Counted from the stretch's first letter, positions 3,816-7,220 are shown. The stretch is 12,765 nucleotides of DNA from a virus (IMGVR_UViG_2634166457_000023:1-12765); one strand, 5' to 3'. Notes: generated by a model from the sequence alone, not told the origin. Translations and numbers: made by a program.

Positions 3816-3908
3816 TATTGATAAACCTCATCACAGATTTAAGGGTGAACAAATCTCTGCCATTGCTGACATATAAGAATGAAACTGGATGTTTATTACT
3901 GTGCTGTT

Positions 3909-4100
3909 TTAAAATCCTGCCGGGATTTCGTTATTATCCTGGTGAATAACTTTATCGACCGGATAACAGTTGCCTGGAATTTTCTGTTCGGTTGCTGCTG
4001 CCATACATTCCTGCATTGTTCTGTGAATACTGACTGCAATATCAACTGGCTCTCCGGAAACAAGAAAAATCGTCAGAATAAGTGCAAATACTGGATTCAT
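3909..4100 (-). CDS. ydfD: YdfD-like small membrane/lysis protein (63 aa)
   Basis: ATG at 4100 overlaps the upstream stop (ATGA). AAAGGA lies 8 nt upstream. N-terminal hydrophobic helix MNPVFALILTIFLVSG. Size and position after dicB match Qin ydfD from memory. Confidence 0.6.
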   Translation of the reverse strand: MNPVFALILTIFLVSGEPVDIAVSIHRTMQECMAAATEQKIPGNCYPVDKVIHQDNNEIPAGF

Positions 4101-4285
4101 TGTGCACATCCTTTTGGCATCAGACGTAAACGGGCCAGCATTGAAACAATGCATACTTTATTTAATAACTCCCGTTCGTGTTTTCTTTTGTTAATGGCCT
4201 CTTCAGTAAATACAGGATTACTGATAGTGACACCAATTTCAAAAAAACCTTCAGACGTATTAACGTTTGGTAATAACATTTTCAT
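4097..4285 (-). CDS. dicB: Cell-division inhibitor DicB (62 aa)
   Basis: Product MKMLLPNVNTSEGFFEIGVTISNPVFTEEAINKRKHERELLNKVCIVSMLARLRLMPKGCAQ closely matches my recollection of E. coli DicB. GAGGG lies 7 nt upstream of the ATG at 4285. Lies immediately downstream of the DicF-like sequence. Confidence 0.75.
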   Translation of the reverse strand: MKMLLPNVNTSEGFFEIGVTISNPVFTEEAINKRKHERELLNKVCIVSMLARLRLMPKGCAQ

Positions 4286-4454
4286 TATCGCGCCCTCAAC
4301 AATGAGTTTTGTGATGCGGTGCCTGGTGCCTCCAGGTGACGTTAACCAGTTAACAATTAACGCCGGATATAGAGAATCCACCCATAACACTGTTTTTGGT
4401 TTTAACTGTTCCGCGTGCGCTCAGCCGCATTCACCGCATCACAAAATTCACTTT

Positions 4455-4512
4455 AAAAAGGGCGGTAGAGCAGTCACGGAGTAAAACTGATACCGCCAAA
4501 CGTCACCAGAAA
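4455..4512 (-). ncRNA. dicF: DicF small RNA (antisense inhibitor of ftsZ translation), with 3' terminator-like hairpin and U-run
   Basis: Minus-strand sequence UUUCUGGUGACGUUUGGCGGUAUCAGUUUUACUCCGUGACUGCUCUACCGCCCUUUUU matches my memory of E. coli DicF almost base for base. It ends in a GGCGGUA...UACCGCC stem plus U5. Located upstream of dicB as in Qin. Confidence 0.75.
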
Positions 4513-4846
4513 ATTGATAACAGAGGGCGTTGCAGCGGGGTTGTCACTTAAGCGTATGGTCAACCTGACAACCCGGTGTCCTCAACGGGGAAGGAATAAC
4601 CCCGCCATACTTACCGCCGCGCCATTTCGCGGAGTGCCACAACCGGAAGCGCACGGTCGACGAAAATTTAACGACAGGCTGTCTATGAACCAGCTACCTC
4701 GCCGTGCGCTTTCGCGTTATGGTCTGACTTTTCAGGGAAATATCCTTTCAGTAAACTGTCAGTGCCGGATGCTCACCCGTGTCCGGCGCACGCACTCCAC
4801 CTCACCCGTGGAGAACTCCTTAATCACCAACCCTCAGGAGGGTGAA

Positions 4847-5122
4847 ATGTCGACTGAAAATGATGAAATCATTAACTCCCTGATACGCCAGATTAATAAT
4901 TTTGATAAAGCATTGCAGCATGCTGCGGCGCGTAGTGATATAACTCTTTTAGCAATTTCATTTCTTGCATCTGTTATGGATAAAAATGAAGTCGTACGAC
5001 AGAGTCTTGTTGATTATATCGACTCGCTTCAACCCGGCACTTTCAATCATGAGAGCTTCAATCATGAGAAAGAGCATGTTAAATCTGTAATTAATTCTCT
5101 TGTTTTGAATCAAAAGAATTAA
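4847..5122 (+). CDS. Hypothetical protein (91 aa), AT-rich cargo gene convergent with the leftward operon
   Basis: ATG at 4847 preceded by GGAGG with a 5-nt spacer. Product looks helical with an in-frame FNHES/FNHEK repeat. Marked drop in GC relative to flanks. The upstream part of track ORF 4514..5122 is Arg-rich and treated as non-coding. Confidence 0.5.
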   Translation: MSTENDEIINSLIRQINNFDKALQHAAARSDITLLAISFLASVMDKNEVVRQSLVDYIDSLQPGTFNHESFNHEKEHVKSVINSLVLNQKN

Positions 5123-5420
5123 TGCTTTTTGTTGCAAAGTAATTTTCAAGGGGGTCTATTCGAATCCCTTTCTTTTTCATTAACAAGCCAAACCCCTTAT
5201 CAATGATGTCCATTAATTCCAGGAAGTATTTTTCATGTAAATCCTGGTTATCAGAGAGCTGCTTCTCTTCGTACAGCCCGATAAAGGCACGACGCACGTT
5301 ACCGGATATAGTATCGATGGTTTCTTTTTCTACGGTACTAAGGTCAAGAGTCGCCAGTTGAGAACGAACTATATTCGATGCCATTTCTTGGAATGGTATT
5401 GGTAAATCTTTAAATTCCAT
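5091..5420 (-). CDS. Hypothetical protein (109 aa), AT-rich cargo gene in the leftward operon
   Basis: ATG at 5420 preceded by GAGG at 6 nt. Protein-like composition with no family recognised. Its 3' end overlaps the convergent gene at 4847-5122 by 32 bp. Confidence 0.55.
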   Translation of the reverse strand: MEFKDLPIPFQEMASNIVRSQLATLDLSTVEKETIDTISGNVRRAFIGLYEEKQLSDNQDLHEKYFLELMDIIDKGFGLLMKKKGIRIDPLENYFATKSINSFDSKQEN

Positions 5421-5455
5421 CGTCAACCTCATCAGTCAGTTATTCACTCGGATAC

Positions 5456-5662
5456 TTAACCATTCTGGCAACATTTAATGCCGCCGCTTCTGTCAGGCTG
5501 GCGATGCTCTGGTCCAGTTCGGCCATTTTTTTTGGCCTGTAGCGTCTTGGAATCATTGACCCATTTCAGGTCCTGCGCAGCCTTAACTTTTTGTTTCATC
5601 CACTCATAAATCTCATCATCGGTATAGCCTGGTGCGATGATGATGGGTTCTGGTTTCTGCAT
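5456..5662 (-). CDS. ydfC: YdfC-like small protein (68 aa as read); probably frame-disrupted at an A8 tract
   Basis: ATG at 5662 with GAGGAA RBS. After the homopolymer (plus T8 at 5526-5533) the read frame encodes low-complexity NGRTGPEHRQPDRSGG, while the neighbouring frame encodes helix-like MAELDQSIASLTEAAALNVARMVKYPSE ending at 5440. Position after ydfB matches Qin ydfC. Confidence 0.5.
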   Translation of the reverse strand: MQKPEPIIIAPGYTDDEIYEWMKQKVKAAQDLKWVNDSKTLQAKKNGRTGPEHRQPDRSGGIKCCQNG

Positions 5663-5691
5663 AATGATTCCTCGCGGTGCTGTTTCGCTTA

Positions 5692-5820
5692 TTAGCCGTT
5701 AGATTTTGCCGAACTGGAAAGCGCCTCTTTAAACTCACTAAAGCTGAGAGCGTCTTCGCCTTCGGCAAGGCCTTCGAAGTATTCTTCGTAAGCCTTTTCC
5801 ATGATTGCGTCGAAATCCAT
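5692..5820 (-). CDS. ydfB: YdfB-like small acidic protein (42 aa)
   Basis: ORF below the track threshold, found by hand: MDFDAIMEKAYEEYFEGLAEGEDALSFSEFKEALSSSAKSNG. Strong AGGTGA RBS. Lies between the YdfA-like and YdfC-like genes. The track ORF 5616..5825 is in a different frame. Confidence 0.55.
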   Translation of the reverse strand: MDFDAIMEKAYEEYFEGLAEGEDALSFSEFKEALSSSAKSNG

Positions 5821-5821
5821 A

Positions 5822-5977
5822 TCACTCACCTGAGTTTCTTTCCAGCCAGCGACGCGCGCCAGATTCGGTTTTAAACGTGGTGCTTTTGGTATACGTCATC
5901 GCGGTGAACGTACCGTCCTGGTTTGGGAACACGCCGCACACCAGAGATTCGTTGTTGCCAAGATCGATAGTATCCAT
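5822..5977 (-). CDS. ydfA: YdfA/YdaF-like small protein (51 aa, DUF1391-like)
   Basis: Hand-found ORF MDTIDLGNNESLVCGVFPNQDGTFTAMTYTKSTTFKTESGARRWLERNSGE. GAGG RBS 7 nt upstream. First gene downstream of the PL-like promoter. Family assignment is from memory. Confidence 0.6.
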   Translation of the reverse strand: MDTIDLGNNESLVCGVFPNQDGTFTAMTYTKSTTFKTESGARRWLERNSGE

Positions 5978-6149: not shown

Positions 6150-6200
6150 ATCTTTAGTTTAATAAACATTAAACTTAAGTCAAGCAAAAACTAAACCGCG
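6150..6200 (-). promoter_or_regulatory. OL/PL-like operator-promoter for the leftward early operon
   Basis: Minus-strand -35 TTGACT (plus 6178-6183) flanked by half-sites TTTAGT (6153-6158) and ACTAAA (6190-6195). The 11-mer GTTTAATAAAC is the exact reverse complement of GTTTATTAAAC in the OR region. Confidence 0.5.
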
Positions 6201-6267: not shown

Positions 6268-6546
6268 TTAGGGAAACTGGCGTCTTGCGTGGATCACGTT
6301 TACTACTTCAACGCTTGATGTTGTTACGCGGTATAGAATTATATAGTTAGGGTGGGCCACAATCTCACGCAAGCCAGGTACTCTGTCGCTTGGTGGGTAT
6401 AAATACGGATGTTCGGATAATGGCAGCACACAACCCCTTAATCGCTGCCATAAGCGTTCAGCCGCATCTATGTCGAAACGAGCAATATAACTAGTTATAT
6501 CATCTAGGTCGGTATCTGCGCTTTCAAGCCATAACACGGGTAACAT
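6268..6546 (-). CDS. parE: ParE-family toxin (92 aa), ParE2-like, of a three-gene repressor-antitoxin-toxin operon
   Basis: C-terminal LREIVAHPNYIILYRV...VEVVNVIHARRQFP is typical of ParE/RelE-fold toxins. ATG at 6546 lies 1 nt after the antitoxin stop. The track start at 6642 is rejected. Confidence 0.8.
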   Translation of the reverse strand: MLPVLWLESADTDLDDITSYIARFDIDAAERLWQRLRGCVLPLSEHPYLYPPSDRVPGLREIVAHPNYIILYRVTTSSVEVVNVIHARRQFP

Positions 6547-6547
6547 T

Positions 6548-6739
6548 TTACTGCTTGCTCCGTTCCTTCCGCATTTTAGCAAAGCGTTCTGCCATTCTGC
6601 GCTCAACTTCGTCATGGGGAATTGCTGGGCGCGGATCTGCAAGGCTCGTTGCTACTTTCGCACGCAGCCATTCGTTGTAACTGTTTTCTTGTTCAATGGT
6701 TTCAAATTCAGAAACCATTGGTGAAAGGGCTCTATTCAT
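6548..6739 (-). CDS. Small antitoxin (63 aa), PaaA-like partner of the ParE toxin
   Basis: ATG at 6739 preceded by GGAGGA at 5 nt. Size and position match the PaaA-type antitoxins of paaR-paaA-parE operons described in E. coli O157 prophages (from memory). Starts 20 nt after the repressor stop. Confidence 0.65.
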   Translation of the reverse strand: MNRALSPMVSEFETIEQENSYNEWLRAKVATSLADPRPAIPHDEVERRMAERFAKMRKERSKQ

Positions 6740-6759
6740 GTTTCCTCCGGTTTTATAAC

Positions 6760-7131
6760 TCAGGCGCGGCGGCATTTTTGCGCCGCAATCCATCTCGCTA
6801 TGAGATCTTCCATTGATTCTTTTTTCTGCTTTAACTCGTTGATTATCTGGCGTTGCTCATCCTCAGGGAAGGCTGAAAAAATCTGCAATAATTCCAGTTG
6901 ATTAGACGTTAACCCTGCATGTGGTGGAGAAACCTCCGGTTGTTCTGCGTATTCCGCATCCAGATACCCTTCCGGCATCCCGTATGTTTGCTCTATTCTT
7001 CTGGCAGCCTTTTCTCCAAACGAGGCTCTCCCACTCATTAGTTGAGATAGGTAGCTCTTCTCTTTGGGTGGCAGAGTTTTATCTTTAAACCACTCCTTGA
7101 GACGTAAACGGCGAATTTCTTTTTTTTGCAT
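6760..7131 (-). CDS. HTH (XRE-type) prophage repressor, CI/DicA-like, lacking a peptidase S24 domain (123 aa); possibly also the PaaR-type regulator
   Basis: N-terminal HTH KEKSYLSQLMSGRASFGEKAARRIEQTYGMP. C-terminal LTSNQLELLQIFSAFPEDEQ resembles DicA as I recall it. Divergent from the cro-like gene. ATG at 7131 has no SD but sits 6 nt after a GATAAT -10, so likely leaderless like lambda cI. The track GTG start at 7194 is rejected. Confidence 0.75.
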   Translation of the reverse strand: MQKKEIRRLRLKEWFKDKTLPPKEKSYLSQLMSGRASFGEKAARRIEQTYGMPEGYLDAEYAEQPEVSPPHAGLTSNQLELLQIFSAFPEDEQRQIINELKQKKESMEDLIARWIAAQKCRRA

Positions 7132-7137
7132 GTGGTA

Positions 7138-7220
7138 ATTATCTTTAGTAATCACTAAACAAGCAAATACTTGACTTAATGGTTTATTAAACACTAAACT
7201 CGCAAAAAAACACTAAACCG
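7138..7220. promoter_or_regulatory. OR-like region with back-to-back divergent promoters (PRM-like leftward, PR-like rightward) and three ACTAAA operator half-site positions
   Basis: Palindrome TTTAGTaatcACTAAA at 7144-7159 sits in the spacer of the PRM-like promoter (-35 TTGCTT as plus 7161-7166, -10 GATAAT as plus 7138-7143). PR-like -35 TTGACT at 7171-7176 with -10 near 7194-7200. ACTAAA recurs at 7193-7198 and 7212-7217. Confidence 0.55.

Follow-up and report, generated by a model that had tools for sequence, protein, structure and literature searches.

A dicF gene and its structured leader in the early-left operon of an Escherichia coli lambdoid prophage

A stretch of viral DNA of 12,765 nucleotides (nt; hereafter the window) very probably carries, on its minus strand at positions 4455–4512, a bona fide dicF gene. 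The gene would lie in an early-left (pL-type) operon, followed by dicB and ydfD, and would act by the mechanism described for Escherichia coli K-12, and the antisense open reading frame (ORF) called beside it would be an artefact. The DicF/DicB locus is known biology, and the module, which has been under study since 1989, is already well studied. Immediately 5′ of DicF lies a conserved RNA domain, here termed block B, that we tentatively propose, at somewhat less than even confidence, to be a distinct class of structured RNA: a pseudoknotted leader module of the early operons of Enterobacterales lambdoid prophages and P1-like phages, which would be coupled to a terminator, carry interchangeable small RNA (sRNA) ‘seeds’ and have a cis function of its own in processing, stability or read-through.

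DicF, DicB and their operon

The preliminary description of this DNA had named a DicF-matching sequence on the minus strand and, as the check, a covariance-model scan. Run over the whole window at Rfam gathering thresholds, that scan returned a single match, to the DicF family (RF00039), which passes at full length (4460–4511, minus strand; model positions 1–52 of 52; 74.1 bits against a gathering score of 48; E = 3.5e-15). Once the U-run and the additional 5′ U annotated in K-12 are counted, the gene occupies 4455–4512, exactly the span that had been named, and the mature 53-nt RNA corresponds to 4512–4460. The GC stem and U-run described at its 3′ end are there as well: the arms (4497–4491 and 4467–4461) pair, UUUUU follows at 4459–4455, and the hairpin folds at -15.9 kcal/mol to give the DicF terminator. 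The RNA is identical at 52 of 53 positions to E. coli K-12 dicF, the allele that has been tested genetically for target pairing (PMC5069750). The one change, G47A, lies in the 3′ stem arm, where it turns a U-G pair of the K-12 terminator stem into U-A, and the variant is absent from the 35 types of downstream sequence that were collected. An RNAduplex prediction for DicF and the ftsZ leader was equalled by 146 of 500 shuffles and so adds nothing to the identity with K-12.

Downstream lies the DicB-like gene that had also been named. The 62-amino-acid (aa) cell-division inhibitor encoded at 4097–4285 (minus) passes the Pfam DicB family model over its full length (PF05358; residues 1–62 of 62; 124.5 bits against a cut-off of 27; E = 1.3e-36), is identical to K-12 DicB at 57 of 62 residues (92%) and has a RefSeq homologue annotated dicB. 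Its ATG stands 174 nt past the last C of DicF and 169 nt past the U-run, in keeping with the gap of about 170 nt originally estimated. The start of the next gene, ydfD (DUF1482; 63 aa; 3909–4100, minus; PF07358, E = 7e-24; phrog_1092), overlaps the dicB stop codon. The spacer between dicF and dicB is itself structured (4301–4452, minus): it is closed by a helix of about 20 base pairs (4452–4432/4321–4301), in which both K-12 substitutions yield G-U pairs, and its fold of -58 kcal/mol (z = -5.2) was equalled in stability by 0 of 200 shuffles. Most of this spacer (4308–4448, minus) also resembles STnc100 (RF02076), matching model positions 21–154 of 206, but falls short of the score required for that family (39.7 bits against a gathering threshold of 47; E = 6e-7 in a 1-kb search). 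STnc100 hits are common in lambdoid prophages, and STnc100 has been linked to the PasD prophage sRNAs (bioRxiv 10.64898/2026.05.13.724894).

The window as a whole is the early region and early-left arm of an E. coli lambdoid prophage. Its minus strand encodes an integrase, an excisionase-like ORF, a 798-aa exonuclease VIII-like gene, ydfD, dicB, DicF, two extra ORFs, ydfC, ydfB, ydfA, a ParE toxin with a PaaA2-type antitoxin and a repressor-like gene; the plus strand encodes a cro-like gene that faces the repressor, a YdaT-like gene and replication genes. This order agrees with that of annotated E. coli prophages and induced phages. Transcribed as ydfA–ydfB–ydfC–(two extra ORFs)–dicF–dicB–ydfD on the minus strand, DicF has the position expected in a dicBF-type operon, between ydfC and dicB. 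Of 5426 complete E. coli genomes, 4744 contain a match to some part of the 1.7-kb DicF region, at a median of two places per genome.

The ydfA–ydfC block (5440–5977, minus; DUF1391, E = 5e-28) comprises ydfA (5822–5977) and ydfB (5692–5829), both named from the annotation of homologues, and a frameshifted ydfC (5440–5662), identified by alignment with the genes of K-12 and strain QA-1986. Relative to those two, ydfC has an extra A in the A8 run at 5526–5533, which leaves ORFs of 68 and 38 aa; it is either a pseudogene or the product of a homopolymer sequencing error. Inserted between ydfC and the DicF leader are two convergent ORFs, 4847–5122 (plus) and 5091–5432 (minus), whose 3′ ends overlap by 32 nt. 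The latter is a 113-aa ORF of the early-left operon that matches phrog_6937 (E = 1e-67; function unknown) and a RefSeq hypothetical protein, has no match in Pfam or PADLOC and is missing from K-12 Qin. It is conceivable that the former, a 91-aa ORF facing the DicF operon, causes transcriptional interference with dicF and dicB, and the two extra ORFs together with the frameshifted ydfC upstream could alter transcription into dicF.

A promoter scan identified a candidate pL-like promoter (TTGACT, 16-nt spacer, TAAACT) at 6152–6183 (minus), where the consensus sigma-70 match (6183 to 6156) overlaps an operator-like palindrome. Palindromes of the TTTAGT-N4-ACTAAA type are common to 6152–6180 and to the repressor/cro intergenic region (7144–7206). 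The consensus promoter match and the shared palindromes are what suggests control by this prophage’s repressor, with 6152–6183 as the putative repressor-controlled pL. The repressor-like protein (6760–7194) has no Pfam match, and the pL region has no homology to K-12 dicBp past the last ~45 nt before ydfA, the immunity region being unrelated to dicA/dicBp. Between the repressor gene and ydfA lies the ParE-family toxin (PF05016) and PaaA2-type antitoxin (PF21217) pair (6268–6793, minus), about where phage lambda carries rexAB; the pair is probably expressed in the lysogen.

The Qin prophage of K-12 (ydfABC–dicF–dicB–ydfDE) has the same gene order from ydfA to ydfD. It is collinear with the window at ~98% DNA identity from about position 4835, in the leader, down to dicB, with homology ending upstream of ~4835, and has the same predicted hairpins at the published processing sites. 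Unlike Qin, the window prophage retains int, xis, exoVIII and replication genes; its repressor/cro/promoter region is dissimilar, with the ParE/PaaA2 pair between repressor and ydfA; and it has the two extra ORFs between ydfC and the leader, the frameshift in ydfC and DicF G47A.

In K-12, transcription of dicBF begins upstream of ydfA. The 5′ end of a 190-nt DicF species is generated by RNase III and that of the 53-nt form by RNase E, and a derepressed operon leads to filamentation through DicF and DicB, the latter a MinC-dependent inhibitor of FtsZ ring formation (PMC10448788 and K-12 work cited there). The 3′ end of DicF is made either by the intrinsic terminator (53 nt) or, when transcription has read through, by RNase III cleavage (72 nt) (PMC5069750, PMC9438474). 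The sRNA represses ftsZ by pairing of its 3′ region with the ftsZ ribosome-binding site; xylR, with which the 5′ region pairs, and pykA are also targets (PMC5069750). Northern blots of wild-type K-12 show mainly the terminated ydfABC–dicF transcript; the read-through form builds up only after RNase E has been inactivated (PMC10448788).

Processing, targets and phenotype are thus known from K-12 experiments, and we placed the processing sites in the window by identity with K-12. A long hairpin (4647–4711, minus; arms 4711–4699/4660–4647; fold -27.7 kcal/mol, z = -2.2), in which a C-to-U change of K-12 in the 5′ arm still pairs, as G-U, is the putative RNase III site, because its 3′ base abuts the start of the 190-nt species (~4644–4649). 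The A/U-rich single-stranded linker GCCCUCUGUUAUCAAU (4513–4528, minus) would contain the RNase E cut that sets the 5′ end of the 53-nt form, and the 3′ end of the 72-nt form would fall at ~4441, within the spacer helix. The predicted hairpins coincide with the expected ends of the published 190-nt and 72-nt species.

By a K-12-type mechanism, inactivation of the prophage repressor would produce a polycistronic transcript from a presumed start upstream of ydfA, and some transcripts would end at the DicF intrinsic terminator while others would run into dicB, ydfD, exo, xis and int. Cleavage by RNase III at the upstream long hairpin would yield the ~190-nt species made of block B and DicF, RNase E would release the 53-nt Hfq-binding sRNA by cutting in the A/U-rich linker, and RNase III cleavage at the spacer helix of read-through transcripts would yield the 72-nt DicF. 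At the ftsZ ribosome-binding site DicF would then block translation, with xylR, pykA and manX as further targets, DicB would bring MinC to the septum, and the two would jointly cause filamentation. Because the immunity region differs from that of K-12, filamentation on derepression, which is shown in K-12, is a prediction for this prophage.

The leader upstream of DicF had been described as a GC-rich stretch (4513–4846) in which a direct repeat and a hairpin might serve precursor processing. The stretch does stand out in GC content (0.52–0.56 against 0.31–0.43 in both flanks). The repeat, CTCACCCGTG, has two copies as claimed, the only occurrences of this 10-mer in the window (0.01 expected by chance); they lie at 4772–4781 and 4801–4810, however, and not at 4776–4785 and 4799–4808, coordinates that were off by 2–4 nt. 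The GCCGGA/TCCGGC hairpin is present on the minus strand (4788–4783/4769–4764). Together with the two CACGGGUGAG copies on that strand (4810–4801 and 4781–4772), it forms an element of the upstream leader (4764–4810) that is partly conserved in K-12, where one CTCACCCGTG copy is mismatched and the closing pair of the hairpin is lost. The suggestion of a processing structure upstream of DicF holds for the stretch, which contains some, but not for this hairpin and repeat, which coincide with none of the published processing sites; in the window, the RNase III and RNase E products described in the literature map to the hairpin at 4647–4711, the linker at 4513–4528 and the dicF–dicB spacer helix.

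Reading frames opposite DicF and its leader

A mechanically called ORF on the plus strand, 4514–5122, begins with TTG and would encode 202 aa. The preliminary description had held its first third unlikely to be translated; the 5′ part does appear non-coding, but its share is larger, amounting to 333 of 609 nt (55%). This part (4514–4846, plus) is antisense to the leader of the DicF precursor. It is extremely improbable that the ORF genuinely encodes a 202-aa protein and that the DicF match is incidental antisense sequence. All 202 codons are open and the frame is also open across the homologous K-12 leader, for which we estimate a chance of ~1% for one frame at such GC; yet K-12 carries the leader stretch without the 3′ part of the ORF, and RefSeq has at the matching place only a 276-nt gene, equal to 4847–5122. 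Some gene callers do lengthen the 91-aa ORF to 103–145 aa, but the lengths called in the protein collection run from 82 to 145 aa and never reach 202, with the start in dispute among callers, and a strong Shine–Dalgarno sequence with an ATG is found only at 4847.

The N-terminal 111 aa, translated from 4514–4846, have no PHROG match. Of the leader core there are 65 distinct homologues, 24 of which lack any open antisense frame, and the frames that are open in the others differ; the leader elements of homologues differ in length by non-multiples of 3, and the DNA of 4514–4846 shows RNA-type covariation on the minus strand. With no PHROG match, no preserved antisense frame and no 202-aa product called, we reject the plus strand of 4514–4846 as coding.

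At most the remainder of the ORF (4847–5122, plus) may be a gene. This possible 91-aa orphan has GGAGG 5 nt before its ATG and is followed by a terminator-like hairpin (5148–5171) and a T-run. It is low in GC, is missing from K-12 Qin and belongs to an E. coli-only family of 15 clusters; searches of Pfam, PHROG and PADLOC gave no match, nor did tblastn against 50,697 phage records. In the largest public cluster for this ORF (481 member sequences), the protein is a 145-aa version whose N-terminus reaches into the DicF leader, which would mean that public records misannotate it systematically. Across the equivalent leader, ‘hypothetical proteins’ are annotated in several phage records.

Further mechanical ORFs on the plus strand, 3879–4484 (201 aa) and 4396–4551 (51 aa), are antisense to ydfD, dicB and DicF, have no PHROG match and are likely to be miscalled as genes. 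These calls and the 5′ part of 4514–5122 are not reportable as proteins, and public annotations are inconsistent here.

Block B, a conserved RNA domain 5′ of DicF

Block B (4529–4643, minus) is a 115-nt structured RNA domain that forms the 5′ part of the 190-nt DicF precursor. Its outer closing helix, P1 (4643–4637/4535–4529), encloses a hairpin, P2 (4632–4628/4621–4617), a second hairpin of variable length and sequence, P3 (4603–4600/4590–4587), and an 8-bp helix, Pb (4573–4566/4546–4539); in the pseudoknot, Pa (4610–4605/4559–4554), a segment upstream of P3 pairs with the Pb loop. The set of copies comprised 65 distinct ones from viral contigs, with divergent ones from Trabulsiella, Citrobacter, Erwinia, Izhakiella and Serratia genomes. 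Standard pairs occupy 94.6% of cells in a 40-sequence alignment, against 33–55% when the partners are slid, although the cells are not independent events because the sequences are related. In 12 of the 30 block-B pairs both partners change, a number that none of 500 shuffles attained. Covarying pairs make up 6 of 8 in Pb and 3 of 4 in P3, with one more in Pa, and P2 is invariant; one paired change is that from GGUUGUCA/UGACAACC in E. coli to GGUAACCA/UGGUUACC in Izhakiella. The nested helices were fitted by the model from which the alignment was built; Pa stands outside that model, yet is paired in 99.6% of cells. Unpaired nucleotides are also highly conserved. The resulting covariance model, R1, scores 164 bits at the window copy.

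A distant-similarity search of phage genomes showed the leader to be a mosaic, in which block B recurs at 77–89% identity in phages without DicF proper. These include Stx2c phages, cdtI, Ayreon, 2H10, a Salmonella phage, an Actinobacillus phage and P1/P7, for which the GenBank record labels part of block B ‘dicF-like region’. The domain is always sense to the repressor-controlled early transcript, in lambdoid phages within the pL leader and in P1/P7 45 nt past the C1-controlled ban promoter, before a strong terminator and the tRNA/ban genes. Every variant is followed within ~10–45 nt by an intrinsic terminator with a U-run, and the ‘seed’ and terminator sequences vary by group. The 190-nt DicF consists of block B and DicF, and DicF seems to be one among the cargoes of a broader modular family. 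A genome-wide 18-mer scan gave mostly chance matches in unrelated phyla, and filtering with the model left Enterobacterales and two metagenome-assembled genomes (MAGs). The latter, labelled Veillonella parvula and Bacillota, contain block B with a DicF-type sequence near-identical to that of E. coli and most likely reflect binning contamination by E. coli prophage DNA.

Block B has no Rfam match at E ≤ 5, and in the leader Rfam finds only DicF and the sub-threshold STnc100, other matches (E = 0.5–4.3) being attributable to chance. A tRNA- or tmRNA-like identity was discarded, as ARAGORN finds neither in block B. The literature on this leader element, as we found it, consists of the ‘190-nt DicF’ species and the P1 ‘dicF-like region’ note, and an earlier description is possible.

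Candidate roles of block B

With modest confidence, we favour block B as a processing or stability module for terminator-linked sRNAs. Such a module might position the RNase E cut, protect the 190-nt intermediate or have a trans function of its own, and would release sRNAs with interchangeable seeds; taken in this full form, we regard the proposal as plausible but short of probable. It fits a published 190-nt species that equals block B plus DicF (PMC10448788) and a linker that is A/U-rich, and it fits seeds and terminators that vary while block B is more conserved, with block B and the terminator folding as independent domains in most types. RNase E sites, however, usually need no elaborate upstream fold, and the conserved unpaired nucleotides suggest a specific partner, which the proposal leaves unnamed.

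The put elements of phage HK022 provide a comparison. They promote read-through of terminators that follow them, through the zinc-binding domain of the RNA polymerase β′ subunit. As with putL and putR, block B is a folded RNA encoded in cis, placed in an early-operon leader under repressor control and followed by intrinsic termination, and it could be pictured as a cis-acting, put-like antiterminator for read-through of the DicF terminator into dicB and the early-left operon. We consider this improbable. The position of block B would suit such a role, given its sense orientation to a repressor-controlled early transcript and a terminator ~10–45 nt on whose sequence varies by phage group, as would that of the P1/P7 copy, 45 nt after the ban promoter and ahead of a terminator and the tRNA/ban genes; but in Qin-type prophages block B lies 1.3 kb from the promoter. 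Read-through is also not obviously efficient, because wild-type K-12 shows the terminated transcript (PMC10448788). An incidental reading of annotation tables revealed no N-like gene beside block B.

The fold and the unpaired nucleotides of block B are conserved, and it contains a few short motifs common to putL and putR, but homology is not detectable. We located putL and putR in HK022, where the deduced transcription start reproduces the residue numbering of PMC9378689, and searched the HK022 immunity region with R1 with filters off; neither element was matched at E ≤ 10. The put sites come as two copies, downstream of pL and of pR, whereas block B is a single copy, with none on the pR side in the window, and its five helices and pseudoknot in ~115 nt differ from the two stem–loops of put in ~70 nt (PMC9378689). 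Homology of block B to HK022 put is rejected on these three grounds, the missing putL/putR match, the single copy and the different architecture; functional analogy to put is possible.

A pseudoknotted domain with a variable peripheral hairpin, conserved junctions and a close terminator in an operon leader is also the classic layout of a riboswitch, so that block B might sense a ligand or signal and attenuate the adjoining terminator. This is highly improbable: in most phage types the minimum-energy fold separates the P1-closed block B from the terminator and shows no alternative pairing that is conserved, the sequence between the two varies in the manner of an sRNA seed, and block B matches none of the known riboswitch classes. 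Folds of 13 representatives thus give no support to a competition of block B with the terminator, since in most of them each forms a domain of its own.

DicF resembles the operon-internal and 3′-UTR-derived Hfq sRNAs SroC, CpxQ and SdhX in having a 3′ end set by an intrinsic terminator and a 5′ end set by RNase E cleavage of a longer mRNA (PMC9438474). Unlike these sRNAs, it has RNase III-dependent 190-nt and 72-nt forms and, fused to its 5′ side, a conserved structured domain that recurs with other seeds.

The locus in the window adds a further copy to a module that most E. coli genomes carry. Block B is the only part of it for which we found no description in the literature, and it can be tested in K-12, where genetic tools are in place. 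If the proposed RNA class is real, DicF biogenesis, and perhaps read-through in the early-left and ban operons, would hinge on an uncharacterised RNA element.
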